A stretch of 64,000 bases of DNA from a virus: IMG/VR virus record IMGVR_UViG_3300020442_000015, positions 35,496 to 99,495 of that record, one strand, 5' to 3'. Position 1 is the first letter of the stretch; the number at the start of each line of letters is the position of its first letter. Shown here one piece after another: positions 16,696-53,051 of the stretch. The translations under genes and the position numbers were made by a program. Below the pieces are notes generated by a model that was not told the DNA's origin, did not search any database, and worked only from the letters and a program-made list of their open reading frames with translations.

Positions 16696-16748
16696 CACTC
16701 ACGGTACTGTCCACCGCCCTTGCCCCAGGGCGGTTTTTTTTGTATAAT
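16692..16748 (+). promoter_or_regulatory. Promoter cassette copy 2 with an embedded terminator
   Basis: TGACA-N9-CTGTCCAC ... TGTATAAT. Confidence 0.65.
16713..16741 (+). terminator. Rho-independent terminator
   Basis: ACCGCCCT-tgcccc-AGGGCGGT followed by a T-tract. Confidence 0.8.
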
Positions 16749-16771
16749 TATGGGACAGACGACAAACAGAC

Positions 16772-33908: not shown

Positions 33909-36900
33909 ATGAAGGCAGTAACCGTATCTCAGAGAGTACAGGATCAAATTCCTGCATTCATTAAGGAAGACAACGAACAGTTTGTCAATCTTCTTGCCGA
34001 ATATTACCGTTCGCAAGAGAAACCTGGTCGTCCGTACGATATTCTCAACAATATCTTGAGATATACGGACATCGGTTCTGGTGAGTTTGATCCTAACTTC
34101 CTGTCTTCGGAATCTGCTGTTCTGAGCGCGGTTGACCCATATCAAAATACTATTGTTGCCGAAAACGTAAACTACTTCCTTGAGAAGGACGGCACACTCA
34201 AGATCGACGATGAGATCATTTATTACGAGTCGATCACACATTCGCCAGACGTTGTTTTCACTCCTGGTGTTAATAAAGAAGAATTTGATCGTAAGATCCA
34301 AGAATTTGAACCGATTGCATCTCAGTTCAACGGTTCTACCACAGAATTTAATCTGAAACTGTTGGGTGACCCAGTTTCGCCACAATCTGCTGATCACCTG
34401 CTGGTTATCGTCAATAATGAATTTCAGTTCCCAAATAGGGACTATTTTGTTGATGGTGATCGTATTCGCTTTGTAAACCCTCCTGTAGCGCCTACAGGTG
34501 CTCTTACAGGTGCTCTTAATACTATCAGGTACCTGATTGGTTATACAAGCGTTCCTGTCCGTTCTCTGGACCCTATTTCTGTTGGTGCTGATTCTAAGCA
34601 GTTCCATCTTACAAGAAATACTCAACCTTATCAACCACTATCAACGATTTCTTCGATTGTTGTCGTTGATAGAGTTGAGAAGAGACCCTTTGAAGAATTC
34701 ACGATCTTTGAAGACAAGATCATTTTCAAAGACACTCTTGGTGCAGGATCGACAGTTGATGTTAGATCTATTGAACTGATTGCTCCCGAATTCGGTGCTA
34801 ATGCTGAAGCAGTCGTCAAAGTTCAAAATGGTGAAGTAGAAGACATCATCGTTAAGGATGGTGGTTCTGGATACAGAATGAGTTTCTCTCCCAAGGTGAC
34901 TATTGCGTCAAACCTTGGTACTGGTAGCGATGCTACTGCAGAGGCACTTGTCAATGGTATCAAGAATGTTAGTCTTCTGTTTTCTGGTCAAGGTTATAGC
35001 GCAAACAACCCACCATTGGTTGAAGTCGATGCTCCTGCAGATCCCGAAGGTAAAACTGCTAAAATCACTGCAACTGTTAGTGATGAGATTGAAGGTGTCG
35101 TTCAGCTGAATGTTCTGTCTTCTGGTTCTGGATATGACAGAATTCCTTCTATCAAGTTCACGAATCCTGGTGGTGCAATCATCAGTGGTCCTACTTTGAC
35201 GGATGGAAGAATCGATGCAGATTCTTTCACTGTTGTTGATCGTGGTAGCGGATACACCACTGCTCCTCTTGTATACATCGATCCCCCAACGGGTTCAAAT
35301 GCAATCGTTGCATCCGTTATGGCACACCTCGATGCTGACGGTAGACTTGACAGAATTGAAGTTCTCAGTGGTGGTCAAGGATATGAAACTGTTCCTAGAG
35401 CAAAAATCATTGATCCTGTTGGCGCACAGATTCTCGATGTGAATGTTACTGGTGGCAGAGTCACCAACATCGAACTGTTGACTGGTGGTAAAGGTTATAC
35501 CGATGCACCTTCTGTGTATATCGTCGATAACCGCAAAGACGTTGCTAATAATCCTATTGGTGGTACTGGTGCAACAGCAGTTGCTACCATCTTTAACGGT
35601 GAAATCACCGACATCAACATTACCAGTTTCGGTGAGGGTTACTCTGATACTGAACCTCCAAAGGTTTTCATCGCTGCACCTCCTGCACCTGAGGCATCTT
35701 GTGATGTTGGTTTTGGTGAAATTACTGGTTTCACTATTCATAATCCTGGATCTGATTATCAACCCTCTGCTTTTGTAAATTGTAAGCGTGGTGTTTCCGC
35801 TGTTTCAGCGTATTCTCAGAAAGGAAACCAAATTTACAGCAAAGAGTCCGACACAATTCAGTCTTCTCACGCTGTTGGTTCGACTATTCACAACCTTGAC
35901 AACCTGTTTGCTAAGGAACTTTATCGTAGATATATCAATCAGTATCTGCCAAATGCAGAAATTGACTATAACAAAGTAAATGCTCCGCAGATCATTAAGA
36001 CGATCAGCGACTTCTACTCTTCAAAAGGTACGAAAATCTCCACACAGTATCTGTTCAAGATGCTGTTCTCGGAGAATGTTGATGTTTCATACCCGAAAGA
36101 TGAGGTTATCAAGCCATCTGCCGCAACTTGGAACGTCGATACCGTTCTTCGTGCGGAACTTTTAAGTGGTGATCCGCGTGATTTGCTGGATTCACAGTTG
36201 TTCCAATACCGAGATGCGGTTGATACGACTGTTGGCGCGGCATCTGCACTGATTGAAAACGTGATTGCGATCAATACTGGTGTGGGCACCGTGTATGAAC
36301 TCGCAATTTCTGAAGAAACTCTGCAAGGTCAGTTCTCTATTCCGTATAGGACGACTCTGGTTGAGGCACTTGACACTACAGAAAGTATTATTACGGTTGA
36401 CTCTACGATTGGTTGGCCAGAGAGAAACGGAACAATCCGTATCAATGATCAAGAAATTGTTCAGTATAAGGAAAAAACACTCAACCAGTTCATTGAATGT
36501 ACTCGTTCTAAGAACGGTGTTGTAGAAGATTGGGATGCTGGCACGCAAATTTACTCCGATGTCTTTGTTTATGTTAATCAGGGTCAGTCAAATGAACTGA
36601 AACTGCGCGTTCTGGGTATTGCAGACGCTAAGTCTACGGTTCTTTCTGACACAGGTTCTTACTATCTGCCTGGTGACAAACTGAATGTTGCGTCTCTTGG
36701 TTCTACAAGTGACGATCAAAGAATCACATCTTGGTTGTACAACGTTAAGAAACTGATTCAGGTTACTGGTATTGTCCCTGGTGGTCTCAATAACCAAACT
36801 GCAACTGTTACTTGCTCCAATAACCACGGTTTGTTGGTTGGTGACTCTGTTACCATCTATGGTGCAAACCCAACAGTGTTCAACGGCACATTCCTGGTGA

Positions 36901-39900
36901 CATCCCGTTTGAGCAATACGGTATTTGAATATAATATTCCACAACCAGCACCTAATGCTCCCCAAGGTAATATCCTTCTTTCAGTTGACCTGAACAAAGG
37001 TAAGTCCTCAGAAAGCGGTATCAACATTGCTATTAAGGACTTTACCACTAACGTCCAGAACACTTTCTTCAATGAGCAGTATTCATATATTGCTTCATCT
37101 GGTATTCCCAACTATGAGGTTGGTCCTTTCCTTGGATCTGCACTGCTTCCTGGTAACCAGCGCAAACTGATTCGTATTCCTCGCGTTATTAACACAGTTT
37201 CTAAGCGTGAAGATGTCAAGTTTGGTCCTGTTGGTGCTTGGGTTAACGGCGTTTCCGCTTGGTCCTATAAATCCAATAGCAAGATTAAGTTCGGTGGTGT
37301 GACGAGTATCACCATCGATAATCCTGGTAAGGGTTATGACGCAGCATCTCCACCAGTCATTGAAGTCAATGGTGGCGGTGGATCTGGTGGTGCGGCAACT
37401 GTTGTCGTCAATGGATCTCTTTATGAAATCGAAGTTACTTCTGGCGGTACTGGTTACACTAGCAGCCCTCTTGTTTCTATCGTGGGTGGTGGTGGATTCG
37501 GCGCTACTGCTACCGCTGTTATTACCAATGGTGTAGTTAGTAGAATTCTGGTCGAATCGCCAGGTCAAGGATATACATCACAACCCACCGTTTCTGTTTC
37601 TGGTGGGGGTGGAACAGGTTGTACTGCAACGGCATCAGTTCGTGGTCCGATTCAATCCGTATCTGTTACCAACTCTGGTAGCTCGTACACACTATCTCCT
37701 GAAATTAAACTGAATTCGGGTGAAGGTGCTGTTGCACAACCAATTATTATCAATGGTCGTATCGTTTCTATCGCTATCATTGCTGCTGGTAGAGGATACA
37801 CCACTGCACCTGAAGTTGTTATCAATGGTGATGGTTATGGTGCTGTTGCTAGAGCAACTATTGGTACTATTGGTGAGGATAGAGGAAAGGTCATTGGCGT
37901 TACTGTTGTAAACAGAGGTATTGGTTATTCCACTGGAATGACTACCATTCGCCTTGAAGCTATTGGTGAGCAAGCACAATTCTCTGCAAATGTCTTTGAG
38001 TGGACTCGTAACCTTCAAGATGAACTCTCTCTGAACTTTGATGCAGCGCGTGGTTACGTGTTTGCTGGATACAACACCCAATATGGTGGCGAATATGCAC
38101 ACGTCTCCGATCCTAAGCAACTAAGATACGTTCTTGGAGACAACGTGTTCAGAAACCAGTCAACTGGTCAACTCCAAGAACTGTCTACTGGTTATGTTCA
38201 CTCTCCGATTCTGGGATGGGCATTTGATGGTAACCCGATCTACGGTCCCTACGGTTATATCGATGCTACCGACCAGTCTTCTGGTATTAGAAGAATCCGT
38301 TCTTCTTACAAGGTTAAGGATGCATTGATATATGATGCTGCAACAAATCCGAACCCTGTGCGTGCGGATGGTCCACTTCTCACTGATTATCCTGCGGGTT
38401 CATTCATTGATGACTTTGAATATGTCTTCCAAGAAGGCGATCTAGATCAATATAACGGTCGTTTCTGTAAAACACCACAGTTCCCCGAAGGTGTGTATGC
38501 ATACTTTGTTTCTATTGATGCATCTGACTTCGGTAATCCAGTTTTCCCGTATGTTTGCGGTCCTCAACTGTATTCTTCTCCCGATCAGTGGAACTACTCT
38601 CAGAATGCTGTTCAGACTAATATCCCAGCAGATGTGGTTCGCTTCCGTGATCCATATGAGGATGTTGATATTGATATTGACCGTCAACCCAACCAAGACA
38701 CCGATACTCTTGTTACGGAAGAAGGTCTTGCTCTAATCTTTGAAATCGAAGATATTAACAGAAACGGTATCATTGATGGTGATGAATCTACCGCAACAAT
38801 CAATATTGCTGAAGAACCTGTCCTGCAACTCTTCGATTACTATCCTAGAGTTTCGGTTAGATCTGAAGTTGACATCGATATTGAGACAACTACTAAATTT
38901 GAGGATGCTCAAGTTGACGGATTCGTCATTGAGAACCCTGGTATCTCCTATAAAGTCAGTGACAAACTGTACTTTGATAATGAAGGCACTGAAGGTTTCG
39001 GTGCATCTGCAAAAGTTGACGCTGTTAAGGGTCTGACAATTTCTGGTTACTCCAGTTATATGGCAAATGATACTCCTTATGGACGTATCACCACTCCTGA
39101 TGAGCACGAATTGCGTGTTGGCGACGAAGTTATCGTCCAAAGTACACCTATTATTGATGACACCAACAAAACCTTTAAGGTTAAGGTCATCTCTGGTGTT
39201 GAAACTGTTACTGTTACTCAAGCTGGTTCTGGTTACTCTGAGGAACTGCCTCCCACATACGAGGTTATCTCTTCCACTGGTCAAGACTTTAGAATTGACA
39301 TCCCAAGAACAGAAGCAGGTGCTGTTAACACTGTTAATATTATTAACTCTGGTTCTGGATACGATAAGGATGAACCCCCTCAAATTCGTGTCTCTCACCC
39401 ACAGAGATTTAAGAAAGCGACTTACTTCCTGTCCTTCTTGAAGGAAAATGCATCTACAACTACTATCACTGACATTAAAGTTGCAGATGACAGAACAATC
39501 TATGTTTGCGGTAAAACTGTAAAGTCTGACGGTGACACAGCTGGTCTCCTCGCTAAGTTCAATAGTGATGGTCGTCTTCTCTGGCAGCGTACATTGTTCC
39601 CAACTGTTCCTGCATCAGGAACCAAGAGTTTGGAATGGAAAGCACTGTATGTTGAAAACAGCAATCCCCACAACATCTATGTTGTTGGTGAGACTGTTCC
39701 TAACAGTGTTAACCTCACACACAATCCTGACGTTGTTGTTGCTAAGTATAGATCTGGTTTCGATAACGCTAACAACCCTGATGGTATTATCCAGTGGCAG
39801 CGTGATATTGCTGGTATCTCTGGTGCTACCAGACGTGACTATGCAGCATCTATCGCTCTAGATCAAGACGGCAGAGTGATGATTGGTGGTTACACCGATG

Positions 39901-42900
39901 CAAACTCCCTTGCTCCCGACGATATGTGGGTAGCACTGCTGGATATTGACGGCACCATTATGGAGAAGCGTAAGATCGCTTCTGAAAGTGGTAGTGAGCA
40001 TCTGGTTGATCTCCAATGGAAATCCACCGATACCTTTATGTTCATCGGTATTTCTGATCCTGCTGGTGCAAGTGATATTATTCTTGGTGAAACTTACTAC
40101 GATACTGCAACTGTTGAACTGCAGTGGGCAAAGAAAATTGAGAGTGGCGCATATAAGTTTATGCACCCCACCTTCACCATTGATGAATATGGTGCTGTAT
40201 ATGTCGCAGCAACTGCTGTGAATGCTCAGGACAAGAATTATGGTGTGTTGTACGTCAAGTTTGATAATAATGACTACACTACACCTGTTGAGCATAAGAT
40301 TTATGTTCCTACTGGAACCTATGATGGATGCCACAATGCTGGTATTAAGTTCGACGTGTTTGGTAACATTGACCTTGGAGTCTCTGTCACTAAGGCATTT
40401 AATGATGTTCAGTCCACAACTCTGAAGATTTCTTGGAATAGTGGCAACATTATCAGTGCTTCCTCTGCAAGTGAGAGTAGTGGTATTGGTTATCACGCTG
40501 TTGACTTGTCAAGTGATAACTCTGGCGACACAGTTGTTATTGGTAATAAGGTTGAAGCAGATCAACTTGCAATCTTCAACTGGAACACTGCCGATAATCT
40601 GCTTGATGAAACTTACAATGACACTCTGAAAACTGGTACGAACAAGGCTTGGTATGATACGAACTATGCAACTATCGATACTGCTAAAAAGCAAGATGGT
40701 GCATCTTCTGTTCAGATCATAGACCCCAACTCACTTGTTCTCCAATATGGTTCTGATGTAGCAACTGAGTGGGCAACTGAAGCGTATTTCGCAATGCCTG
40801 CAGCTAGCTACACTGCAAATAACACTGACCCCGAGTTCTTCTCTGTTTCTGATGCTCTGAACAACACTGTTAGGTGTGGTCTTATTGCTGATCAATCCGA
40901 TGCCAACAATGGTAAGGTGTTTATTGCTATTGGAGGATCTTCATCATATTCTGCTGCAGCAACTTATCGTGCAGCGTTCAATGCCGAAAGTTTCGTTCAC
41001 GTTGCATTCACTAAGGAGCGTCCTGGTGTTGGTAACTATCGTTATCGTGTTTTCATTAACGGTGTACTTGCTCTCGAAACTCTGAGCACAACTGTTGATG
41101 TCAATCTTAAGGATGTAACCCTCGGACCTGTATCCACACCGAGTACCAATAATAGCTGGATAGGATGGGTTGATAACTTTGTTGTCTCTCCAGTATTCAA
41201 ATACAACGATGCATTCACTCCTGCAGTTGTTGCTGGTACAAGCAGCCCGACTCAAGCATTCCTCTACAAGATTGATAAGGACAAGACGAAACTTGGCACC
41301 TTCAACCTTGACGATGTTGAGACAGGTCACACTCTTGTAACCGCCGCTGAGAGTGGTTATACGTTTAATACCCAACCTGTCACTGTTAATCCCTGGATTA
41401 TTGGTCCTGCAGGTATTCAGATTCTTGATTATTCTGACGTAACCTCTACTCACGTTCCTGGTATCTACACATTTACAGATTCCTCAGAGAAGTTTAGTGA
41501 GAGAACTGCAACCATTCCTACACAAGGTGGTACGAAGCTTCTGCTTTCTGCAACTGTTATTCCCAAGTTCTACTTGCGTGATGCAACATATAACAGTATT
41601 GACCTTGTTAAGACCCTTACATTCAATCAACCCGCAACTTTCACTAAAGGTTCCATCCTCCAACAGTATTCTGTAATTGGTGGAAGCGATGTTGTTTCTG
41701 CATATGGAACAATCGTTGAAGCTGGAACAAACTATGCAAAGATCGGTAAGATTATTGGTAACTTTGACACCACAAAACTCCTGAAGTCAACGGCAGGTGA
41801 CATCAATACTCTTGATCGTAACTTCACTGTTGAAACTACAACACCTCAATGGGTTGAGAACTTCTCATATACTGTTGGTGATGTTGTTTACAATGCTGGT
41901 AAGATTTACACTGCAACTTCTACAGGCGTTTCTGGTCCTTTGGCACCAGAGCACACCACTGGTATTGTGACCGATGGTGCTGTCAACTGGTCTTTCACCA
42001 GTGTTTCTGGCAGTTTCGACGTTGATCTGGCAAATACTGTTTACAATGGCAGCACTCTGGGAGCGTTTACTTCGTGGAGAGCATTTGCTGCAGAAGATTA
42101 TACTATTAAGATTGAAGAAATCTATGGCGATTCCTCCTTTATTAAGGGTGATACCATTGATGCGGATGCAGTCAACCTACAATTTACCGTTGATGCAACT
42201 GGTAAGATTGCTACATTTGCTGGATTGATTGGTGTTAAGAAGTTCTCTTTGATTGCTACACTTGACAAAGACGTTATTCCTGCTTCTGGTCTTGCAAATA
42301 CCGATCTGGTGTACTGCTCCGCCAACAGTAGACATAACTTTGAGGCAAATGAAATCATCTTTACAGAGAGATTTGCCACTAATGACTACAACGGATCCTT
42401 CTTTGTTGAAGAAGTCTTTAGTTCTAGAGAGTTTACATTCCGTTTGAGAGGAACTGCTGTTCAGGATCCCACATTCTCAGGCACAGGTTCTTCTGTTTCC
42501 AACGTTAATATCTACGCTAAGCACCCCAAACTGCTGTTTGTTCGCTATCACCAGTACATTTTTGACCTGGATGATCCATCAAACCTCGGTTATTACCTGT
42601 CTTTCTCTAAGGATAACCAGTACAAACTGGAATATCCGTTCATTAACATCATTAGAGAGGGTACACCTGGTCTGACTGACGACGATTCACCCACTCCGTT
42701 GGTTAAATTCATCGTTACAGACTCCGTTACCAATATTTCATACTATTTTGATCCATCTAGAACTGGAGCAGACTCTCCTGTTGGTGAAGGATCCTTTATT
42801 GACGTTATTCAGAGTCCTTATTCTGGTAGATTTAGAGTTTCTGCAACTGGAACTCAAGGAACTACCTTCGATTTCCCACTTCTCGTTGAACCTGAGAAGA

Positions 42901-45900
42901 CTATCGCTCCCGTTGGTAATAATGAGTTCGGTAATGCTCGTTCTTCTTACTCTACAACCTCTCCAAAAGCGATTGGACCTATTGCAAGCATCAAACTTGT
43001 CAACCCAGGTGGTTTCTATCAGAAACTTCCCATCGTTACGGACATTGCATCGAACAGAGAAATTGAAAAAGTTCGTATTCTCAACGGTGGTACTGAGTAT
43101 GTGAACGGTATTTACTACAATGTACCTATTACTGGTGACGGTGAAGGTGCAAGTTGCAATATTACAGTTCAGGATGATGGAGATTTCACTGGTGTTATCA
43201 CCGATGTCACTCTTACATCCGCTGGTAAAGGATATAAAACTGCATCTATCGACGTTGATGCTATCCCTGGCATTCTTGGACCTCTTCTTGCAGGTTCTGG
43301 TGCACAACTTCAAGTTGTGATTCCTGATGAAGGTTCGGGTGCATCGGTGTTCCTGCAAGGTAAGAGCATCGGTAAGATCAAGAAACTGAAGAACAACGAA
43401 TTTGGTTTCGGATATTCTCACGATTACACTCTGAGACCCGAAATTACTTTCCCCGTCAACCTTCAACTGTTTAATACCGCTATTCTGTCGGAGATCAAGA
43501 TCACCGATCCTGGTTCTGGTTATACCTCGGTTCCTGCTGTTGTTATCAGTGGTGGCGGTGGATCTGGTGCAGAAGCAGAAGCAATCGTCAAGAACAACAG
43601 ACTTTCTGAAGTTATCATCAAGAACCCTGGTTCTGGTTACTCTTCTGAACCGACTGTTACCCTGAAGTCTGAATTTAACTACGTTGTCAACGTTGACTTG
43701 GGTTATTTACAGTTCAACTTCCCGCACGGCATCACAACTGGTGCAGAAGTTCAGTTGAGAGCAGAAGATCTTGGTTCTACAGTTGGTGTTCTGCCGAAAC
43801 CGAGTTCTGCAGGTTTGGTTAGCTTGAGCCCAAATCAGATCTACTACGCAATCGCTGGTGAGCAAAACTCCTTGGAATCTGACCAACTTCGTATTGCACT
43901 GACCAAACTTGACGCAGAATCTGGTTCTTTCATCACATTCTTGACTCAAGGTGATGGTCGTCAGGTTCTGTTGACCGAAGTGTTTGGTGGTCAAGCGACT
44001 GCAATCGTTGAAACCTCCAGATTCCTTGAAGGTGAACTTGTTTATCAGGGTTCTTCGCTGGAACTCGCATCTGCAACTGGTTATGTTTCTACTAACGAAG
44101 GTTGGCAGATCGGTCCTCGTATCCTGAAACTTGAAAACTATGATGGTATCTGGAAAGAAGGTGAGCGTGTAACTGGTCAGGTGTCTCGTGCATCTGGTTT
44201 GGTTGACAACCTGTCTATTGCTCGCGGTACTCTGAACATTGCATCTCTGACTAATACACCTGGTCAGTTTATCGATGACGTGGGTAAACCCTCCGAAATC
44301 GTTCAGAAGATCCAAGATTCCTATTTCTATCAGAACTTCTCTTACGTTATTAAGTCTCAGACACCTATTAACGACTGGAGAAAGTCTGTTCTGGAAACAA
44401 ACCACCCTGTTGGTTTCAACCTCTTCGGTGAACTAGCAATCACAGGTGGTAAGGATATTTCGGGTCGTAAAGTTATTTCCGACTTGATCAAGGAAGTTAA
44501 TATCAACTCCTTCACTAATATCAATGAAATTACATCATTTGCTAACGCACAACCGATTTACACCCAGTTTAATAATACTGAGGTGCTCTTCAGACAGAAG
44601 AGACTTACTAACTCTGAGGAAATTCTAACCTCTATCGTTAAGAAGATCGATGATGTTTCTGATCAATTCAATGGTATTAAAACCCAGTTCCCACTGAATG
44701 TTGAGGGCGAATCTATCACAGCAACTGAAACTCAGATGTTTGTGTTGATTAACGGTGTTGCACAGGCACCTCAAGAAGCATTCTCTACTGCTGGTCCTTC
44801 CATCGTCTTCTCTGAAGCACCTAAGGCACCTTCTAGAATTAAATTCCGTGAAATTCAATACTCCCAAATTACTCTGACTCGTTTGACGTTCAGTAACATT
44901 GGTGGTATCTTCCCGCTGACTGGTAATACTGTTAGAGGTATTGTTTCTGAGGCAACTGCAACTGTTATTGATTCTGGTGTTGACTATATCGATGTTTTCG
45001 ATGTTGAAGGTACATTCCAGACCAACGAACAAATTCTTAGCAGTGCAACTGGATTCAACTCCACTCTTGCAACTGTAAACCCTGTTACTTCTAAGACGAT
45101 CTTTGAGCAAGGTGAAAGAATCACCAACCTCAAGGGCGACTTTGCAATTATTGAAGAAAATAACTTGCAGGGTGGTGTTATTGGTAACGAACTGGTCGTT
45201 TCTCGTACTTCTGGTACTGATAAGTTTGAGACTGGTGAATTTAACATCAAGTTTAACGATGTTATCTACTCTTCTAGATCCAAAATTGCTGCTACTGTTA
45301 CTGTTATCGCTCCGTATAGCGATGACACCAGTAATCAAATTATTGACCAGGTTGATCTGTCTCCCTCGTCTTCGTTCTTTGCTCTTGTTTTCCAGAGAGT
45401 TCCTTCAACAACATTCCCGAACGTCATTCTTGACGACATCGGTGCAACTGTTATTAACCCAACAGAACTCAATGACCTTGAGTCACCCAATAACCAAGAT
45501 TTCCTTGACTTCGAGTCTGTCCGTAACCAAGAAATTCGTTACGATCAACTGACTGGTACCGATTTCGCACCTGGAACCAACATCAGATTGAAGAAGATCT
45601 ACTTCGGCAACTCTTCTCTTAGACAGGTTACTGATACTCGTGCTAAGAATGCATCTGACGCATTGGTGAAGAATGCACGCTTTATTGCTGAAGAAGCCGT
45701 GGGTGATATGTTGAATTTCTACCCCTCCTTTAGCATCAATACTGTTGGTGGTAATCAGGATTGTATGGATGACATCGTTGATGTTATCAACGCAGCTGCT
45801 TGGCAACTTGAGTTTGATGGCAACTCTGAGATCTGGGACATTGCTAACACATATGTCCAGAACCAGGCAATCTACCATCTTGACGGTGCAGTTCCTCAAA

Positions 45901-48900
45901 CCATCTATGCAATGAACGCAGCAAGAGATCTTGCTCTGAAGTGCATCAGAATGGAGAATATTGATACTGAGTATACAACTCTGTCTCAGTGGAAGGATCT
46001 GACCCTGACTCCTGAATACGAAGTTGTTAGCAACAGTCACGCTGACGCTCGTACACTGATCCTTGCTAACAAGTGGTATATCGCACACGAATCACTGCAC
46101 TACGCTAAGACGCAGAATCCATCTCTGGTAGTTCCTGGTGGAGATGTCAACTGCTTGTCTGACATCGTGGATATGGTTGAATCGATGGCATACAACTTGG
46201 CACACGGTGGTAACGACTTTGTTTACGATGCAACTCGTTACTATATGGCAGGTGCACACGTTGCTGGATATGAAGATGACACCGTAAATGCCTTCACTAA
46301 GGCAAAGGCGATGGCAATCAGCATTATGAGAAACGAAGCTGTTGTTAAGCAAGGTTCCCACGGTTGGAACCAAGTGACTGACACTTCTATTACTGCCGAT
46401 CCTGCTAACCCGACTTGTCAAGCAGTTGCTGCTGCAATCACAACTCTGATGGATATTCCCATCAATGCTCTGGGTACTAACGCATCTCCTGGAACTTTAG
46501 CAGCATTTGAGGCAGCATATACTAAGACTGCACCTCAAGCAAACTATGCTGATGGTAGAACATCTATCGGTAGCAGCACTGCTTGCGTGAGTCAGACATC
46601 TGCCGTTACTAACTTTATTAAGATCATCACAGATTCTCTGCAAGATCCTACAGGTGCAGATCCTGCAACCTATCAGTGGTCTATCAGTAATGTTACTCGT
46701 GTTGAACCCCCATATGCGTTTGAAGATAACGAAACTATTCGTTCTATCAAGCACAACTATAGTAATAAGTCTTCTGGTGGATTCTTCAACTTCGGTGACA
46801 CGATGAAGGGTATCACCTCTGGTGCTACCGCCGAAATTATCGGTACAAATGCTGGTAACAAGTGGATCTACACCAAGGGCGTTACTGGTGCGTTCTCTGG
46901 AAATGAGTACATCACCAACTCCAAGATTACCTATGCAAATGTCTCCGTAGACAACATTACATTTGGTGTTGGACCTGGATCTCTTGATTTCAGTGGATCT
47001 GGTAGCAAAATTGATATGATTGCTGACCAAAGAGTCAATTTTGGTACTGCTGACTTCACTATCGAAGCTTGGATTCGCCCTGACAGCGTAACTGGTGTTC
47101 AGAGAATTATCGACGCTCGTTCTACATCTTCAAGCGTTGCGCCAACACTCTTTATGAGTGGAACCTCTCTCCGTTATGGTACTGGTGCTGGTGACCATAT
47201 CACTGCTACTGGTGCCATCACAACCATCGATACCTGGTATCACATCGCTGTTTCCCGTGCATCGAACGTTACTAAGATGTTCGTGAACGGTACGCAAGTC
47301 GGTTCTGATTATACTGACAATAACGACTATGGCGATACAGCGTTCAAGGTTGGTGCTGCTTGGAACAATGGTGAAACCTATGACGGACATCTGGACCAAA
47401 TGGTCATCAGAAAATCCGCTGCATATTCTTCTACTTTTACTCCCCCCACCGTATACACTACAATATACGAAGGTCTTGATGTCACATTCGGTCTTAACGG
47501 TAGTCAACCGTTCCCGATGGAAACTACTGCAATCTACGCGACTTATGGTCAGACCATAATCTCTTCTGCAACTGCTGACGGTGTTGAACTGTGGCGTAGT
47601 GAGATTATGACTGAGGAAGTTGATGTTTCTCGCGATGATTATCGTGAATGTGCTGACATCATTGATAAGAACCGCTTCTGGATTGCAGAAGAAGCAGTTG
47701 GTCGTATGAAGGCAAAGTATCCTGACTTTGTTATTCCTGGAGACGTTGGTCTCGCTACTACAGGTACCGACAAGTGTCTCCGTGATACTCACTCCTTTAT
47801 CATCCCCGCAATCATTAACGATCTTCGTTATGGTGGCAACTTCAACACTATCGTTGCAGGTCGTGGATACCTGGAAGGATCTGGTGCTCTGAAGCACGTG
47901 AACGGTGAACTTCTCCAGTCCATCTATACCTGGCGTGAAGTTGGTAAGATCTGTATTGATGTTATCACTGCAAACCAAGATGATCTGACTGGTGAATATA
48001 CCAACAGAATTCGTGTTCCTAACTACTTCTCCTCACCAGCGTCTTCTCAAATTACAACGTTTATTACTGATCTGATTGACAATATGTTGGATGTTATTGC
48101 TCCAACTGGTCACAGATTCCGTGATGGTGCTGACCTTCTCTACTTCAACCGTAAGTCTATTGCTGATGAAGCAGTGGCAATGCTGGAAGAGAAATGGCTT
48201 GTCAACATTGCGTTCTATCAGCAAAGCAAACTCACTATCCCCAACAGAGAGAAGTGCATCCGAGATCTTAGAGATCACATTATCCCTGCTGTTGCTGGTG
48301 ACTTGATTACTGGTGGTAACTCCAATATCCAAGGTATTATCGATTCTTACTTGGATAGTCAAGAAGACATCAACTACATTGAAGGTGAACTTCTTCCTAT
48401 GCTGGATGCATTTGAAGATGTGAAGTTCCTGTGTGGTAAAGCACTGGAAAACCTGTTGGTTGGTCGTAATGAGAACATTGCTAACCTGACTGGAACTAAC
48501 GCTCAAACAATTAACGATTTCTATCAGTATCAGTACACTGATCTCCCCGCATACAGAAAGGTTTACGATGCTGCTGTCAACTACAGTGTTGATGGTGCTG
48601 AAATTACTGAGAGCACTTTCTATCCTCCCGATCCCCACATCTTCTCTGGTACCGATCGTGCACTTGATTCTGCAAACATCCTAGAGGAAAATGCACGTAT
48701 CATCGCTGAGGAAGCGGTTGATCTGGTTATGAAGACCTCTGCGTTTAAGCATACTGGTTTCAAAGTTCCTGGTGGTAAGGTCAACTGTGAAGATGACCTG
48801 GTTGATTACATCAATGCAGTCTGCCACGACCTCAGATTCACAGTAAACGAGAAGTCTTACGACGCATCTGCACTCTATCTGGATACTCAGATGGGTCTGC

Positions 48901-51900
48901 AGCACGTTACCAATCAATCCGCAGAGACTGTTCACGCCTATAAGTTGGCACGTGATATGTCAATTCTCGCGATCCGCAACAAGCTTGGGTTTAATCCCTT
49001 CGAGGAGTCCACTGGAGGCGGTGGTGCTCTTGGAGGAGGCGGTGGCGGTGGCGTCCCTCGCGGTGATTATGATAACAATGCAACTGCAAATGGTTTCTAC
49101 GATTCTGCAAACAGCATTGAAAATAACCTCAGATTCATTGCTACAACTGCAGTTGGACGTGGACTGACTAATTATCCTTCTCTGACTATCCCTGGTGGTT
49201 ACCAGAACTGTGTTGATGACGTTATTGACATCCTGAATGCTCTGATCTTCAACTTGAAGCACGGTGGCAACAACAAGATGTACTACGCAACTGAGTTCTA
49301 CATCAGCAACGCTAACGCAGTTGTTCACGTGCTTTCTCAGGCAACTGAGACTAAGTACATTATGGAACAGGCACGCGATATTGCTATTGAGGTTCTCAGA
49401 AATCAGTCTGTCACAACCAACGGTACAACAGAAGGATCTCAAGCGATTGACAGCACAATCACTACTGACACTGCTAACCCCACTTGCCAAAATGAGGCAG
49501 CAGCAGTTACAACACTGATGGGTATTCCTATCAACCTGTTCACTCAAACTTCTAACCCTCAGGGTTACCTGAATGGTGTAACGAGAACACTTCCTGATGA
49601 GTGGCCACTTACTGGTGAGCGTGCACTCAGACGTGACATCGACATTACCTATGATATGGCAGGTAACGGTGACTGTGCTCTGGTTTCTGCTTCTATTGAC
49701 ACCCTGTTCTCGTATGTGATCAACGTCGTTAATACTGCTGCAGCAGGTAGCGGTAACTGGTTGACAAATAGTGGTCTCGTTAGAACCACCAAGGCAACTG
49801 GCAACACTCTGAATAATGGTGGTGGTCTTTGCTACAACGTTAGATCTGCTTCCAATGTCCTCTTCGATCTTCTTGAGGATACTCTGGGTAGAGCAGGTGA
49901 GATGTATCGTCAGGCAGCACGTCTGCTTATTATCAATGATAACTACATCAACCGTGAGGCATACTACAAGACTACTCAGCAGTACAGTGGTTATGGTGGT
50001 GATGAAGCATATGGTAGTTCTATCCGTAAGGCATTCATCTACGACTTGCTCACCGATGGTAATGCTGCAACCCTGCAACTCGTTAACTCCTGGTTCGATG
50101 CTGAGGGTAACTTTATTGCATTCCCTGGCGTCTTCAGAACTTATCTGATCTATCACGCAACTGCAATTAAAGATTTCTGTAAGCAAATCATTGGTCAGAG
50201 AGCAATTACTCCTGGTACTTACAACCAAGAACCCACGTACACGGATCGCGAACTTCGCCCAACTGTTTACGCTGAGCATAAGATCGATCAACTTGATCAC
50301 TTTATTCAGACCGCTCTGCTGCGCTCTACTCCTCCGACAGTTATCCTTAAGCAGTCCTTCGACGCTGGTGTTGCGGTCAATACCAACGGTTCTATCACTG
50401 CTGCGGGTCATCCGTTTGAAGCATACGATAGAGTCAGTTATCAAGTTCTTGGTAGCAATATTGCCGAACTTACCTTCACGCAATATTATATTCACCCCGA
50501 TACGACTGCAAATACCATCTGGTTGGCAGAATATATCGATGGTCACAAGATTACAAGTCTGACACCTGGAACCGCAGGTCAAATTCATACGTTCGTCTGC
50601 TTACGTGAGAGCGGTATTGACAGAATTACCACCACATATGGTGATCGTGTCATTCCTACTCCTATCACTGGTGGTATTCAACCTGCTGACATCTTCTATG
50701 GCACTTCTTCTGGTGCATATGGTGAGGTCATCCGTATTCAGGACAACCTCGCAGAGGTTATGTACAAGATCAAGCACGCAGAAGTTAATGTTACAACTGA
50801 AACCTTCTTCACTCTTGGTGAGACTGTGGTTGTTCAGGGTGCTACTGGAAACACTTCAACATTGCTTGCTTCTACTGGAGCAACTGGTACGGGTTACGTC
50901 AAACTCATCGTCAATGGCGGTCAATTCCAGCAAGGCGATGTTATTGAGGGAACTACTAGCGGTGCACAAGCATCGATCACAAGTATTCCCGACGATAGAA
51001 TCCTGGTCAACTTCGACAAGGGTGAGTTCATTGCAACTGACATCGTTTACTCCAAAGAAGATTCTGGTAAGGCAAATGCACTAATCGTCCGTAATAATGA
51101 CGGTGCTCTGATCAACAACCAACTTGGTCGCGTTACATTTGACATCGAAACTGTCAAAGGCGAATTCAAGGAGAGAGATGTTATCTACGGTTCTGTTACA
51201 GATCAGATCATTGAAATTGAAGGATTCAACATTCTTCCTGGATTCGGTGAGTATCTGCACTCTACGGAGATCACACGCTTCACGTATGCAAGTTTGACCA
51301 CTGATACTGGTGTTACAGACACATTCCAAGTTGGTGACGTGCTGCAACTCCAAAACGCAGGTCAGTCTGTGGGTCACACCTTCGTGGTTACCGAGCACGA
51401 TACTGATAACAACTACGTTTATCTCGCTAACGAGACGAACAGATACATTGGTATCATTGACGACTTGAGCAATGACCTGACCGCTATTGCAAACAATACT
51501 GCATACCAACTTGCCAAGATTCCTCCTGGTTCTAACTTCCCAAGTGTTTACACCAGCGCGATCTCCAACGTTACAATCACACCGACTTCTGCATATGGTA
51601 AGGTCGCGAAGATTGAACAAGTTGGTCTTCGCCTGATTATCCACCTGGAAGATAGTAATGGAACATTCCTGAAGAACTCTCAGATTATTGGTGACTTTGG
51701 ATTCCAAGGTGCTTGTGGTGGGGCGAAATACCTACGCGGGCGCGTGAAGAGATTCTTCCGTGGTTTTGATGGTTCTCAACAGAACTTCAAGTTGACCACT
51801 GATAACGGAACTCCTTACTTCCCAGATCCCGCAGGTCATATGATGATCTTCGTGAACGGTATCCTCCAACCTCCTGGCGGTAACAACGCTTACACGGCAT

Positions 51901-53051
51901 TCTCTGACAACATTCAGTTCACTGAAGCACCTGCTATCAACTCCACGTTCCACGGCGTCTACGTGGGTAAACTGAGACAGTTGGATGACATCTCCTTCGA
52001 CTTCGACTCGTTGAGGAACTCCTTCAACCTGAAACTGGGTGGTGTGTTCTACTCACTGACTCTGACTGAAGGTGTTCAGTCCAACACGATCAGACCTGAG
52101 AACAACATCATCTGTCAGTTGAACGGTGTTATTCAGGAACCTGGAATTGGTTTCGAGATCGTTGGTTCTAGAATCATCTTCTCTGAGATTCCTCGCGCAG
52201 GTTCGACCTTCGTTGCATTCTCCTACATCGGTTCTGACGTTGACGTTATCGCGGCAACCGTCGTTCCTCCGATCGAAGCAGGTGACATTCTGCAGATCGA
52301 AGGTGAGGACGAGAGTAGAGAGGTTGCTTTGATTGAATCTTCCAACTCCCTGATCACGTTTGAATACTCAGGCGCTGTTCGCGGTCGTAACGGTCAAGCA
52401 TTGGCAGAGATTGAAAAGGGTCGCGTTACTAGAGCAATTCTTACTAACTCTGGTGATGGTTACACTTCACGCCCACAGGTGGATGTGATTTCCTCCTCTG
52501 GTTTCGGTGCACGCATCAAGGCACTTGTTGGTCTCGCACGCATTGACGTGAAGAACGCAGGTCAGGGTTATGTTCAACCTACCGTTGCAGTCAACACGAC
52601 TGTTGCAGACAACTTCTTCGCACCTACTGGTGCTCCTCTCAACGGTGGTATTGACATCTACGATCCGAATTATGTTCCTCCTGGCGAAACTGAAGCACAG
52701 GGTGAACAGGCAATCATCATCGAATCTCAACCAGTTAACACAACTGTCAACCAGGGTCAAACCGCATCGTTCACCGTGGTCGCTTCTACTAACCCCGCAG
52801 GCGGTACAATCGCTTACCAGTGGCAGAAGAAGGACTATGGCACAAGTTCCTGGACTAACATCCCAGGCGCGACTAGCCCAACTTACACTACGAGTGCTAC
52901 AACTCAAGGTGATGGTGGTGACGAGTTCAGATGTGGTCTCACTGCAGCGGGCGCAACTCCAACGCTCTCCAACTCTGCAGTCCTGACGATCAATATCGGT
53001 GCAACCGTGATCCCAGGATTCACCTCAGACCAGATCTTCGACGACAACTAA
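33909..53051 (+). CDS. gp7: Giant (6380 aa) gp7-like baseplate wedge initiator / multidomain virion protein
   Basis: Follows gp6; 'QIPAFI', 'ISDFYSSKGT', 'IQDSYFYQNFSYVIKS...HPVG' gp7-type motifs; GxGY beta repeats, a YHYH-associated segment, LamG-like domains, helical repeats and a C-terminal Ig-like domain. Confidence 0.8.
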   Translation: MKAVTVSQRVQDQIPAFIKEDNEQFVNLLAEYYRSQEKPGRPYDILNNILRYTDIGSGEFDPNFLSSESAVLSAVDPYQNTIVAENVNYFLEKDGTLKIDDEIIYYESITHSPDVVFTPGVNKEEFDRKIQEFEPIASQFNGSTTEFNLKLLGDPVSPQSADHLLVIVNNEFQFPNRDYFVDGDRIRFVNPPVAPTGALTGALNTIRYLIGYTSVPVRSLDPISVGADSKQFHLTRNTQPYQPLSTISSIVVVDRVEKRPFEEFTIFEDKIIFKDTLGAGSTVDVRSIELIAPEFGANAEAVVKVQNGEVEDIIVKDGGSGYRMSFSPKVTIASNLGTGSDATAEALVNGIKNVSLLFSGQGYSANNPPLVEVDAPADPEGKTAKITATVSDEIEGVVQLNVLSSGSGYDRIPSIKFTNPGGAIISGPTLTDGRIDADSFTVVDRGSGYTTAPLVYIDPPTGSNAIVASVMAHLDADGRLDRIEVLSGGQGYETVPRAKIIDPVGAQILDVNVTGGRVTNIELLTGGKGYTDAPSVYIVDNRKDVANNPIGGTGATAVATIFNGEITDINITSFGEGYSDTEPPKVFIAAPPAPEASCDVGFGEITGFTIHNPGSDYQPSAFVNCKRGVSAVSAYSQKGNQIYSKESDTIQSSHAVGSTIHNLDNLFAKELYRRYINQYLPNAEIDYNKVNAPQIIKTISDFYSSKGTKISTQYLFKMLFSENVDVSYPKDEVIKPSAATWNVDTVLRAELLSGDPRDLLDSQLFQYRDAVDTTVGAASALIENVIAINTGVGTVYELAISEETLQGQFSIPYRTTLVEALDTTESIITVDSTIGWPERNGTIRINDQEIVQYKEKTLNQFIECTRSKNGVVEDWDAGTQIYSDVFVYVNQGQSNELKLRVLGIADAKSTVLSDTGSYYLPGDKLNVASLGSTSDDQRITSWLYNVKKLIQVTGIVPGGLNNQTATVTCSNNHGLLVGDSVTIYGANPTVFNGTFLVTSRLSNTVFEYNIPQPAPNAPQGNILLSVDLNKGKSSESGINIAIKDFTTNVQNTFFNEQYSYIASSGIPNYEVGPFLGSALLPGNQRKLIRIPRVINTVSKREDVKFGPVGAWVNGVSAWSYKSNSKIKFGGVTSITIDNPGKGYDAASPPVIEVNGGGGSGGAATVVVNGSLYEIEVTSGGTGYTSSPLVSIVGGGGFGATATAVITNGVVSRILVESPGQGYTSQPTVSVSGGGGTGCTATASVRGPIQSVSVTNSGSSYTLSPEIKLNSGEGAVAQPIIINGRIVSIAIIAAGRGYTTAPEVVINGDGYGAVARATIGTIGEDRGKVIGVTVVNRGIGYSTGMTTIRLEAIGEQAQFSANVFEWTRNLQDELSLNFDAARGYVFAGYNTQYGGEYAHVSDPKQLRYVLGDNVFRNQSTGQLQELSTGYVHSPILGWAFDGNPIYGPYGYIDATDQSSGIRRIRSSYKVKDALIYDAATNPNPVRADGPLLTDYPAGSFIDDFEYVFQEGDLDQYNGRFCKTPQFPEGVYAYFVSIDASDFGNPVFPYVCGPQLYSSPDQWNYSQNAVQTNIPADVVRFRDPYEDVDIDIDRQPNQDTDTLVTEEGLALIFEIEDINRNGIIDGDESTATINIAEEPVLQLFDYYPRVSVRSEVDIDIETTTKFEDAQVDGFVIENPGISYKVSDKLYFDNEGTEGFGASAKVDAVKGLTISGYSSYMANDTPYGRITTPDEHELRVGDEVIVQSTPIIDDTNKTFKVKVISGVETVTVTQAGSGYSEELPPTYEVISSTGQDFRIDIPRTEAGAVNTVNIINSGSGYDKDEPPQIRVSHPQRFKKATYFLSFLKENASTTTITDIKVADDRTIYVCGKTVKSDGDTAGLLAKFNSDGRLLWQRTLFPTVPASGTKSLEWKALYVENSNPHNIYVVGETVPNSVNLTHNPDVVVAKYRSGFDNANNPDGIIQWQRDIAGISGATRRDYAASIALDQDGRVMIGGYTDANSLAPDDMWVALLDIDGTIMEKRKIASESGSEHLVDLQWKSTDTFMFIGISDPAGASDIILGETYYDTATVELQWAKKIESGAYKFMHPTFTIDEYGAVYVAATAVNAQDKNYGVLYVKFDNNDYTTPVEHKIYVPTGTYDGCHNAGIKFDVFGNIDLGVSVTKAFNDVQSTTLKISWNSGNIISASSASESSGIGYHAVDLSSDNSGDTVVIGNKVEADQLAIFNWNTADNLLDETYNDTLKTGTNKAWYDTNYATIDTAKKQDGASSVQIIDPNSLVLQYGSDVATEWATEAYFAMPAASYTANNTDPEFFSVSDALNNTVRCGLIADQSDANNGKVFIAIGGSSSYSAAATYRAAFNAESFVHVAFTKERPGVGNYRYRVFINGVLALETLSTTVDVNLKDVTLGPVSTPSTNNSWIGWVDNFVVSPVFKYNDAFTPAVVAGTSSPTQAFLYKIDKDKTKLGTFNLDDVETGHTLVTAAESGYTFNTQPVTVNPWIIGPAGIQILDYSDVTSTHVPGIYTFTDSSEKFSERTATIPTQGGTKLLLSATVIPKFYLRDATYNSIDLVKTLTFNQPATFTKGSILQQYSVIGGSDVVSAYGTIVEAGTNYAKIGKIIGNFDTTKLLKSTAGDINTLDRNFTVETTTPQWVENFSYTVGDVVYNAGKIYTATSTGVSGPLAPEHTTGIVTDGAVNWSFTSVSGSFDVDLANTVYNGSTLGAFTSWRAFAAEDYTIKIEEIYGDSSFIKGDTIDADAVNLQFTVDATGKIATFAGLIGVKKFSLIATLDKDVIPASGLANTDLVYCSANSRHNFEANEIIFTERFATNDYNGSFFVEEVFSSREFTFRLRGTAVQDPTFSGTGSSVSNVNIYAKHPKLLFVRYHQYIFDLDDPSNLGYYLSFSKDNQYKLEYPFINIIREGTPGLTDDDSPTPLVKFIVTDSVTNISYYFDPSRTGADSPVGEGSFIDVIQSPYSGRFRVSATGTQGTTFDFPLLVEPEKTIAPVGNNEFGNARSSYSTTSPKAIGPIASIKLVNPGGFYQKLPIVTDIASNREIEKVRILNGGTEYVNGIYYNVPITGDGEGASCNITVQDDGDFTGVITDVTLTSAGKGYKTASIDVDAIPGILGPLLAGSGAQLQVVIPDEGSGASVFLQGKSIGKIKKLKNNEFGFGYSHDYTLRPEITFPVNLQLFNTAILSEIKITDPGSGYTSVPAVVISGGGGSGAEAEAIVKNNRLSEVIIKNPGSGYSSEPTVTLKSEFNYVVNVDLGYLQFNFPHGITTGAEVQLRAEDLGSTVGVLPKPSSAGLVSLSPNQIYYAIAGEQNSLESDQLRIALTKLDAESGSFITFLTQGDGRQVLLTEVFGGQATAIVETSRFLEGELVYQGSSLELASATGYVSTNEGWQIGPRILKLENYDGIWKEGERVTGQVSRASGLVDNLSIARGTLNIASLTNTPGQFIDDVGKPSEIVQKIQDSYFYQNFSYVIKSQTPINDWRKSVLETNHPVGFNLFGELAITGGKDISGRKVISDLIKEVNINSFTNINEITSFANAQPIYTQFNNTEVLFRQKRLTNSEEILTSIVKKIDDVSDQFNGIKTQFPLNVEGESITATETQMFVLINGVAQAPQEAFSTAGPSIVFSEAPKAPSRIKFREIQYSQITLTRLTFSNIGGIFPLTGNTVRGIVSEATATVIDSGVDYIDVFDVEGTFQTNEQILSSATGFNSTLATVNPVTSKTIFEQGERITNLKGDFAIIEENNLQGGVIGNELVVSRTSGTDKFETGEFNIKFNDVIYSSRSKIAATVTVIAPYSDDTSNQIIDQVDLSPSSSFFALVFQRVPSTTFPNVILDDIGATVINPTELNDLESPNNQDFLDFESVRNQEIRYDQLTGTDFAPGTNIRLKKIYFGNSSLRQVTDTRAKNASDALVKNARFIAEEAVGDMLNFYPSFSINTVGGNQDCMDDIVDVINAAAWQLEFDGNSEIWDIANTYVQNQAIYHLDGAVPQTIYAMNAARDLALKCIRMENIDTEYTTLSQWKDLTLTPEYEVVSNSHADARTLILANKWYIAHESLHYAKTQNPSLVVPGGDVNCLSDIVDMVESMAYNLAHGGNDFVYDATRYYMAGAHVAGYEDDTVNAFTKAKAMAISIMRNEAVVKQGSHGWNQVTDTSITADPANPTCQAVAAAITTLMDIPINALGTNASPGTLAAFEAAYTKTAPQANYADGRTSIGSSTACVSQTSAVTNFIKIITDSLQDPTGADPATYQWSISNVTRVEPPYAFEDNETIRSIKHNYSNKSSGGFFNFGDTMKGITSGATAEIIGTNAGNKWIYTKGVTGAFSGNEYITNSKITYANVSVDNITFGVGPGSLDFSGSGSKIDMIADQRVNFGTADFTIEAWIRPDSVTGVQRIIDARSTSSSVAPTLFMSGTSLRYGTGAGDHITATGAITTIDTWYHIAVSRASNVTKMFVNGTQVGSDYTDNNDYGDTAFKVGAAWNNGETYDGHLDQMVIRKSAAYSSTFTPPTVYTTIYEGLDVTFGLNGSQPFPMETTAIYATYGQTIISSATADGVELWRSEIMTEEVDVSRDDYRECADIIDKNRFWIAEEAVGRMKAKYPDFVIPGDVGLATTGTDKCLRDTHSFIIPAIINDLRYGGNFNTIVAGRGYLEGSGALKHVNGELLQSIYTWREVGKICIDVITANQDDLTGEYTNRIRVPNYFSSPASSQITTFITDLIDNMLDVIAPTGHRFRDGADLLYFNRKSIADEAVAMLEEKWLVNIAFYQQSKLTIPNREKCIRDLRDHIIPAVAGDLITGGNSNIQGIIDSYLDSQEDINYIEGELLPMLDAFEDVKFLCGKALENLLVGRNENIANLTGTNAQTINDFYQYQYTDLPAYRKVYDAAVNYSVDGAEITESTFYPPDPHIFSGTDRALDSANILEENARIIAEEAVDLVMKTSAFKHTGFKVPGGKVNCEDDLVDYINAVCHDLRFTVNEKSYDASALYLDTQMGLQHVTNQSAETVHAYKLARDMSILAIRNKLGFNPFEESTGGGGALGGGGGGGVPRGDYDNNATANGFYDSANSIENNLRFIATTAVGRGLTNYPSLTIPGGYQNCVDDVIDILNALIFNLKHGGNNKMYYATEFYISNANAVVHVLSQATETKYIMEQARDIAIEVLRNQSVTTNGTTEGSQAIDSTITTDTANPTCQNEAAAVTTLMGIPINLFTQTSNPQGYLNGVTRTLPDEWPLTGERALRRDIDITYDMAGNGDCALVSASIDTLFSYVINVVNTAAAGSGNWLTNSGLVRTTKATGNTLNNGGGLCYNVRSASNVLFDLLEDTLGRAGEMYRQAARLLIINDNYINREAYYKTTQQYSGYGGDEAYGSSIRKAFIYDLLTDGNAATLQLVNSWFDAEGNFIAFPGVFRTYLIYHATAIKDFCKQIIGQRAITPGTYNQEPTYTDRELRPTVYAEHKIDQLDHFIQTALLRSTPPTVILKQSFDAGVAVNTNGSITAAGHPFEAYDRVSYQVLGSNIAELTFTQYYIHPDTTANTIWLAEYIDGHKITSLTPGTAGQIHTFVCLRESGIDRITTTYGDRVIPTPITGGIQPADIFYGTSSGAYGEVIRIQDNLAEVMYKIKHAEVNVTTETFFTLGETVVVQGATGNTSTLLASTGATGTGYVKLIVNGGQFQQGDVIEGTTSGAQASITSIPDDRILVNFDKGEFIATDIVYSKEDSGKANALIVRNNDGALINNQLGRVTFDIETVKGEFKERDVIYGSVTDQIIEIEGFNILPGFGEYLHSTEITRFTYASLTTDTGVTDTFQVGDVLQLQNAGQSVGHTFVVTEHDTDNNYVYLANETNRYIGIIDDLSNDLTAIANNTAYQLAKIPPGSNFPSVYTSAISNVTITPTSAYGKVAKIEQVGLRLIIHLEDSNGTFLKNSQIIGDFGFQGACGGAKYLRGRVKRFFRGFDGSQQNFKLTTDNGTPYFPDPAGHMMIFVNGILQPPGGNNAYTAFSDNIQFTEAPAINSTFHGVYVGKLRQLDDISFDFDSLRNSFNLKLGGVFYSLTLTEGVQSNTIRPENNIICQLNGVIQEPGIGFEIVGSRIIFSEIPRAGSTFVAFSYIGSDVDVIAATVVPPIEAGDILQIEGEDESREVALIESSNSLITFEYSGAVRGRNGQALAEIEKGRVTRAILTNSGDGYTSRPQVDVISSSGFGARIKALVGLARIDVKNAGQGYVQPTVAVNTTVADNFFAPTGAPLNGGIDIYDPNYVPPGETEAQGEQAIIIESQPVNTTVNQGQTASFTVVASTNPAGGTIAYQWQKKDYGTSSWTNIPGATSPTYTTSATTQGDGGDEFRCGLTAAGATPTLSNSAVLTINIGATVIPGFTSDQIFDDN
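45642..50325 (+). repeat. Array of about 7 phycobiliprotein-like helical domains within the giant protein (interrupted by a LamG-like domain)
   Basis: Recurring pattern A..l..N..fIa.eA......P....PG...C..D...i..a...L..GGN; Cys codons at 45762, 46152, 47775, 48255, 48786, 49209. Confidence 0.7.

Follow-up and report, generated by a model that had tools for sequence, protein, structure and literature searches.

The 64,000-nucleotide window analysed here, the right-hand 64 kb of the 99.5-kb virus record IMGVR_UViG_3300020442_000015 in IMG/VR (positions 35,496 to 99,495; the record is ~54% complete), encodes a giant virion protein of 6380 amino acids (aa) with six helical repeats of ~140 aa and one degenerate seventh. 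These modules are almost certainly true homologues of phycobiliproteins with a predicted phycobiliprotein/globin fold, and the positions that their family keeps most strictly are those that contact the bilin chromophore in phycobiliproteins. A literature search turned up no description of phycobiliprotein-like domains in virion proteins of cyanophages. The open reading frame (ORF) and its modules R1 to R6 are arranged as follows, counted from the first letter of the window.

33909-53051, + strand: giant virion protein of 6380 aa, a single ORF at the gp7 position, directly after a gp6 homologue.
45627-45950, + strand: R1, helices A to G; first-site Cys3952 at 45762 in CMDD; helix H displaced to 46578-46646 in the AlphaFold2 (AF2) model.
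46026-46478, + strand: R2, modelled as a contiguous A-H domain within the G-H loop of R1; Cys4082 (46152, CLSD) and second-site Cys4170 (46416).
46578-46646, + strand: predicted helix H of R1, which begins just after Cys4226 (46584); AF2 helix at model residues 326-344, predicted local distance difference test (pLDDT) ~86.
47631-48113, + strand: R3, the copy most like phycobiliproteins, with helices A-H contiguous; Cys4623 (47775) in canonical CLRD; Ser at the second site.
48120-48488, + strand: R4, helices A to G; Cys4783 (48255) in canonical CIRD; hmmsearch 142 bits.
48651-49013, + strand: R5, helices A to G; Cys4960 (48786) in CEDD; hmmsearch 149 bits; followed by a Gly-rich linker.
49074-49553, + strand: R6 with its own helix H; Cys5101 (49209, CVDD) and second-site Cys5193 (49485); hmmsearch 196 bits.
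49668-49889, + strand: two more Cys-initiated helices, at Cys5256 (49674) and Cys5308 (49830).
49902-50261, + strand (aa ~5332-5451): degenerate seventh module without the Cys or the Asp; hmmsearch 13.3 bits.

The initial annotation of this DNA, made from the letters alone, had claimed about seven helical repeats, six of which keep a Cys with an Asp at +3. Both statements stand. A profile built from the six strong copies re-detects each of them at 142-197 bits and recovers the degenerate seventh, and the 6380 residues contain the pattern C..D six times and no more, at the first-site codons listed above and each time within a repeat. The equivalents of phycobiliprotein Cys82/84 and of the Asp three residues on are thus present in 6/6 modules. 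The spacing noted for repeat 2 (C, D+3, I+4, Y+13, L+15, GG+18/19) agrees with a real CpcA sequence. The Arg at +2, equivalent to the Arg84/86 that binds a bilin propionate in phycobiliproteins, is found only in R3 and R4; R1, R5 and R6 have Asp here and R2 has Ser. The giant protein contains 33 Cys, 17 of them in the repeat region, and 11 of these 17 fall into two motif classes, the first and the second site. A third Cys recurs in helix G of R1, R3 and R4 (Cys4012 at 45942, Cys4682 at 47952 and Cys4842 at 48432) in an 'ARDxxxxC' context, and akin 'RD(L/I)C' contexts are seen in the repeats of P-HM1/2 and S-RSM4. The Gly-rich linker between R5 and R6 (49017-49060) reads GGGGALGGGGGGG and varies in length among orthologues.

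Sequence comparison leads from these modules to a single protein family. The Pfam phycobiliprotein profile PF00502 scores the repeat region at 36.7 bits, above its cut-off of 22.2, over profile positions 33-84 only; repeat 3 alone scores slightly below the cut-off at 21.3 bits, and relatives within the family reach 27.7-61.2 bits. Searches of 177,635 PDB sequences used the six-repeat profile and then one built on 34 related IMG/VR loci, which supplied 58 non-redundant repeats. Phycobiliproteins only were found among the best 60 matches, with best E-values of 3.6e-4 and 6.5e-5, respectively, and the alignments share one register throughout (residues ~30-101), placing the repeat Cys on Cys82/84 and the GG on GG. 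The same register was obtained with hhalign for the repeat alignment against real CpcA/CpcB from an Acaryochloris plasmid (probability 94%, E 1.4e-7, 100 columns covering helices A to G), where the Cys falls on Cys82 and the Asp on Asp85. All alignments begin at phycobiliprotein residue ~30-34 and the AF2 model begins with helix A, in line with the earlier suggestion that the N-terminal X/Y helices are absent. A tblastn search of R3 against plasmids gave no match.

Structure prediction adds an independent view. The AF2 model of R3 has six helices at a pLDDT of 85.6 and a predicted template modelling score (pTM) of 0.84. With this model as query, the top matches in Foldseek are all phycobiliproteins, at template modelling (TM) scores of 0.67-0.70, and so are the top 8 in VIA-align (Z 13-16), led in fit by phycoerythrin beta 5aqd_M (Z 16.1, root-mean-square deviation (rmsd) 3.5 over 152 residues). 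ApcE is matched at Z 14.3 and other globins at Z <=12, the next-best being photocobilin, RsbR and globin sensors at Z 11-12. The predicted fold is thus of the globin type seen in phycobiliproteins, and the non-globin outcome that would have counted against the initial annotation did not arise. Although each single score is modest, family and register agree across methods, and for this reason we consider the homology secure.

A second model, of R1-R2 with the two downstream helices (m8bc88036f0b8; pLDDT 81.6, pTM 0.72), suggests that modules can be nested. In this model R2 is contiguous (residues 139-294) and superimposes on ApcE 4xxi_A with Z 13.5 and an rmsd of 2.1 over 118 residues, and on 8imk_G with an rmsd of 2.0 over 116 residues. 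Many globins align discontinuously, to residues 1-112 and the last helix at 326-344, so that matches spread over model residues 1-348 with just ~130 residues aligned. The model thus has R2 sitting inside the G-H loop of R1, with the helix that follows Cys4226 serving as helix H of R1. By analogy with this pair, the helix at Cys5256 would belong to R5 and that at Cys5308 to R4, each as a displaced helix H. The G-H loop of R6 is interrupted in many orthologues by large beta-rich insertions (columns ~495-900 of alignment A3), beyond which the Cys and its helix reappear. In L007, L009, L010, L012, L014, L033 and L034 these insertions contain repeated '...F(T/N)C..D.....(Y)PR..DP...' units; the window protein does not have such insertions.

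Five downstream helices headed by a Cys resembling beta-155 had been described, and all five Cys were found at the codons given (46416, 46584, 49485, 49674 and 49830; aa 4170, 4226, 5193, 5256 and 5308), each in the first turn of a helix and each invariant in 22/22 distinct orthologues. These helices are predicted to be H helices, which would put an invariant second Cys just before helix H, at the position of beta-Cys153/155. R3 has Ser here. In relatives of the tail-fibre type, each ~135-aa unit has, besides C-x-R-D, a second Cys where its last helix begins, in 'DPxSCANVQ..ID.L', and the second-Cys motif C-A-[ND]-V-x-[ST]-A-I-D-x-L occurs in 14/14 repeat-bearing reference genomes. The first-site Cys is retained in modules without the second, as in R3 and in P0003-type proteins with 29 CxRD motifs. 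Because such single-Cys modules keep their first Cys, an obligatory disulfide within the domain is disfavoured, and as judged from these sequence patterns a bond between the two conserved Cys is unlikely.

Conservation of the first site extends far beyond the window. In the clade of the window protein, 197/197 repeat copies keep the Cys and the Asp at +3; one Asn, an Ile-Ala pair and the Asn of GGN are likewise invariant. When 1.84 billion representative proteins were searched exhaustively with a profile (E <= 1e-3), 1240 clusters of giant proteins at 50% identity were returned, with up to 35 repeats per protein. Among 1533 repeats taken from the best 150 of these clusters, the Cys is present in 97.8%, the Arg at +2 in 93.2% and the Asp at +3 in 99.3%, and the motif of the family is on these frequencies C-x-R-D, the same as in phycobiliproteins. 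Such alignments make it secure, at the level of sequence, that purifying selection is centred on the old chromophore site.

The family is large and, securely, its members have been seen only in T4-like marine cyanophages and only in their tail-fibre and baseplate proteins. A tblastn search of 50,697 phage genomes, with the laminin-G (LamG) domain excluded from the query, matched 368 records, all of them Synechococcus or Prochlorococcus phages or labelled 'Cyanophage', except for one labelled 'Marine'. With another family member as query, 356 records from the same kind of phages were matched. A megablast of the repeat region against the phage collection gave no match. One apparent non-cyanophage source, a family member labelled as from a metagenome-assembled genome of Nanopelagicaceae (actinobacteria), was rejected as a misbinned cyanophage fragment, since the protein is 65% identical to the short tail fibre of S-RSM4 and its contig is only 2 kb long. 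Of 20 reference genomes, 14 carry the repeats and S-CREM2, S-CRM01, S-CBWM1, P-SSM2, S-SM2 and S-SSM7 do not; the second query, which covered the five T4-like genomes among these six and left S-CBWM1 aside, confirmed the absence. In the RefSeq entry of S-PM2 (NC_006820, 165928-177267; L144), 16 transfer RNA features lie inside the giant 'short tail fiber' ORF, which looks like a coordinate error.

The gene setting suggests a place in the tail for the giant protein. PHROG matches in the window to gp6, baseplate wedge proteins and other tail proteins identify the virus as a T4-like cyanomyovirus. The ORF aligns end to end with phrog_701 ('virion structural protein', 6136 positions) and also matches phrog_2885 ('baseplate wedge subunit'), and its orthologue in S-WAM1 is annotated as 'baseplate wedge initiator'. 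From synteny and annotation, the baseplate is the putative location of the protein. Its neighbour and its other recognizable domains are the following.

31798-33879, immediately upstream of the giant ORF: gp6 homologue (phrog_219).
37977-38522 (aa 1357-1538), within the giant protein: YHYH domain (PF14240, E 3e-30).
47028-47411, + strand: laminin-G/concanavalin-like domain between R2 and R3 (Pfam PF13385, E 2.5e-18).

Further Pfam matches (FliL, Amidase_6, PKD_4, DUF5122, DUF4867 and Alfin) were sub-threshold and dismissed as noise.

Based on the conserved residues of the phycobiliprotein site, attachment of bilins to the modules can be predicted, a serious prospect that in our judgement falls a little short of even. 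The infected cell would supply the bilin, phycoerythrobilin or phycocyanobilin, which would lie along helix E, where the invariant Asp (and the Arg in canonical sites) would hold it and the invariant Cys would form the thioether; a second bilin would be joined to the Cys that precedes helix H. The linkage might form autocatalytically or with the aid of a lyase, the strongest candidate being the T-type CpeT of the phage. The baseplate or fibres of an assembled particle would then bear tens of chromophores, most likely used for a light-triggered conformational change that gates adsorption. This complete scheme, a virion photoreceptor with covalent bilins on baseplate or fibre modules, loaded by the 'orphan' lyase CpeT during assembly and making adsorption light-dependent, we regard as somewhat unlikely. 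Two kinds of lyase-like gene come into consideration for it.

13807-14316, + strand: CpeS-like (S-type lyase-like) ORF of 169 aa; Pfam PF09367 at 37.8 bits, matching model positions 102-169 of 170 only.
28918-29782 of the record (G000:C1:28918-29782), ~6 kb upstream of the window start: a tandem pair of CpeT-family genes, 147 and 151 aa long; PF06206 at combined 44.7 and 48.3 bits (L036-L039).

The initial annotation had put forward the ORF at 13807 as the partner of the repeats, and had proposed to follow repeats and lyase genes across phages. For the S-type lyase the idea found no support. PF09367 is found in 0/14 repeat-bearing reference genomes and only in S-CREM2 and S-CBWM1, both of which are without repeats, and therefore the CpeS-like ORF is not a general partner. 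A 2023 paper describes S-type lyases as confined to cluster C and S-CBWM1 (PMC10665884). The T-type does co-occur with the repeats: cpeT (PF06206) was detected in 12 reference genomes, 12/12 of them repeat-bearing, and in 0/6 repeat-less ones. In S-PM2, Syn1 and S-RSM4 it lies 0.7-1.5 kb upstream of the giant repeat-bearing 'short tail fiber' gene on the same strand. CpeT is thus a better candidate lyase than the CpeS-like ORF. In work by Gasper and co-workers from 2017, the cpeT product reportedly bound phycoerythrobilin tightly and showed no normal lyase action on the host protein.

Some further observations concern these genes and their surroundings. The CpeS-like ORF has the sequence CTAAATA 23 nt upstream of its start codon, and the phage that carries it shares its giant virion protein with clade A/B-type cyanomyoviruses. 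A run of ORFs of the 2-oxoglutarate (2OG)-Fe(II) oxygenase family and a DUF6445 ORF lie upstream of it at 9261-11700, and in S-PM2 and Syn1 a 2OG-Fe(II) oxygenase also separates cpeT from the repeat-bearing fibre gene. In P-SSM4 (NC_006884), a 148-aa ORF at 16642-17064 scores 37.4 and 22.9 bits for the CpeT family; a 2010 review had stated that cpeT is absent from this phage.

Adsorption phenotypes offer another point of contact. In a 2019 study, P-HM1 and P-HM2 failed to adsorb in the dark and P-SSM2 adsorbed in the dark (PMC6628666). For S-PM2, light-dependent adsorption is independent of photosynthesis, and its mechanism was called unknown, possibly involving light-sensitive fibres (PMC6628666). 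The repeats are carried by P-HM1, P-HM2 and S-PM2 and are lacking in P-SSM2, and this match between light phenotype and repeat presence is suggestive.

Several points weigh against a pigmented, light-responsive particle. In a tree of portal proteins, a single branch (support 86/86) has all 14 repeat-bearing genomes on the same side, and one event on that branch can explain the whole co-distribution of cpeT and repeats, which is consequently consistent with a link but is not independent evidence for it. The corresponding 2x2 table (12/2/0/6; naive one-sided Fisher p ~7e-4) was set aside because the tree needs only one change. The contrast in light-dependent adsorption falls on the same branch and was likewise set aside as non-independent. 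The three cases in which cpeT adjoins the fibre gene represent one clade, and P-SSM7 and S-ShM2 bear repeats and have no cpeT above threshold. Genes for ferredoxin-dependent bilin reductases show no association with the repeats in the reference genomes. The site itself also departs from the canonical one. The window protein is an atypical member of its family that has lost the Arg of C-x-R-D at 4/6 sites, and in the hhalign consensus of the repeat family a gap of 7-8 residues precedes the Cys, corresponding to phycobiliprotein ~70-78. In phycobiliproteins this segment includes Asn72 and Arg77/78 and forms part of the enclosure of the bilin; it is deleted in most repeats, and only R3 has the full-length loop. 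The further helix-G Cys of R1, R3 and R4 bears on the disulfide alternative.

These departures at the same time feed the alternative that survives best, in which the modules are pigment-free and structural: a host phycobiliprotein gene would have been acquired in the distant past and its compact helical fold put to use as a spacer or scaffold of fibre and baseplate that tolerates insertions in its G-H loops, with Cys, Asp and Arg serving stability after lysis through disulfides between modules or subunits, metal sites along the fibre axis or salt bridges. We consider this account possible and hold it tentatively. It would make sense of the deleted bilin-wrapping segment, of the extra helix-G Cys and of the Asp or Ser in place of Arg, since C-x-D-D would suit a metal and T4 fibres do use axial metal sites. 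Large unrelated insertions such as the LamG domain and the beta-rich segments are what a scaffold would allow, and we know of no report of a pigmented cyanophage. What a scaffold leaves unexplained is that the three most conserved positions in ~1500 copies are the chromophore-contacting residues of C-x-R-D. Disulfides as their purpose fit poorly with a first Cys that persists where its partner is missing, and in phycobiliproteins the two bilin-attachment sites lie far apart.

Alternatively, the old chromophore cleft might bind a host-surface component or another small molecule for host recognition. The modules do occur in tail-fibre and baseplate proteins beside the lectin-like LamG and YHYH domains, their copy number ranges from 3 to 35 per protein across phages, as in host-range determinants, and the globin fold serves many ligands, as the rank of photocobilin, RsbR and globin sensors just behind the phycobiliproteins recalls. 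Receptor-binding surfaces usually vary, however, whereas the residues of this site are near-invariant and identical to those that bind bilin, and no conserved His or other cofactor signature appears among the 1533 repeats; we find this reading quite unlikely. That the likeness is one of chance or convergence among generic helical bundles is scarcely credible: the single-domain scores are marginal (21.3 against 22.2 bits, PDB E ~1e-4, Foldseek E ~2e-3) and helical folds give high background Z-scores, but four independent methods arrive at the same family in the same register, with phycobiliproteins filling the best 60 PDB matches and outranking all other globins by structure, relatives at 45-61 bits on PF00502, and 100 hhalign columns from helix A to G.

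Homology and retained attachment residues together make pigment and light sensing in a virion testable. If true, the bilin proposal would provide one testable answer to three puzzles of cyanophage biology: light-dependent adsorption, the carriage of cpeT, and the presence of bilin genes in phages of Prochlorococcus, a host without phycobilisomes, for which the reason has been called unclear (PMC2984593). A virus particle that bears pigment would add a new type of function to those of virions. Should there be no pigment, the modules still present a host light-harvesting fold made over into a building block of the virion, nested domain insertions included.

Comparison with known systems helps to place the modules. 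The giant cyanomyovirus baseplate and fibre proteins (PHROG 701, 2885, 4527 and 5342), annotated as virion structural, baseplate wedge or short tail fibre proteins, have the position after gp6 in common with T4 gp7; unlike the 6380-aa window protein, gp7 has ~1000 aa and no phycobiliprotein-like modules. With phycobiliproteins (CpcA/B, CpeA/B, ApcA/B) the modules share the globin-type fold of helices A-B-E-F-G-H, predicted in their case, as well as the Cys at the start of helix E, the Asp at +3, the GG at +18/19 and, family-wide and in R3 and R4, the Arg at +2. The second Cys, predicted to lie directly before helix H, would correspond to beta-Cys153/155 of the beta subunits. The modules differ from phycobiliproteins in the 7-8 residue deletion before the Cys, in a sequence identity of ~15%, and in the lack of X/Y helices, so that no alpha-beta monomer or disc assembly is expected of them. 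They are moreover strung or nested in virion proteins of 3000-7000 aa, with foreign domains in their G-H loops. Similar in this respect is the bilin-binding domain of ApcE (4xxi), likewise a phycobiliprotein domain with a loop insertion in a large multidomain protein, which attaches its bilin without a lyase; ApcE differs in having its Cys at another position and in belonging to the phycobilisome core instead of a virion. Photocobilin (8j2w), RsbR and globin-coupled sensors, at Z 10-12, use a phycobiliprotein-like or globin fold for sensing and not for light harvesting, but they rank below phycobiliproteins, have no sequence-level match to the modules and do not contain C-x-R-D.

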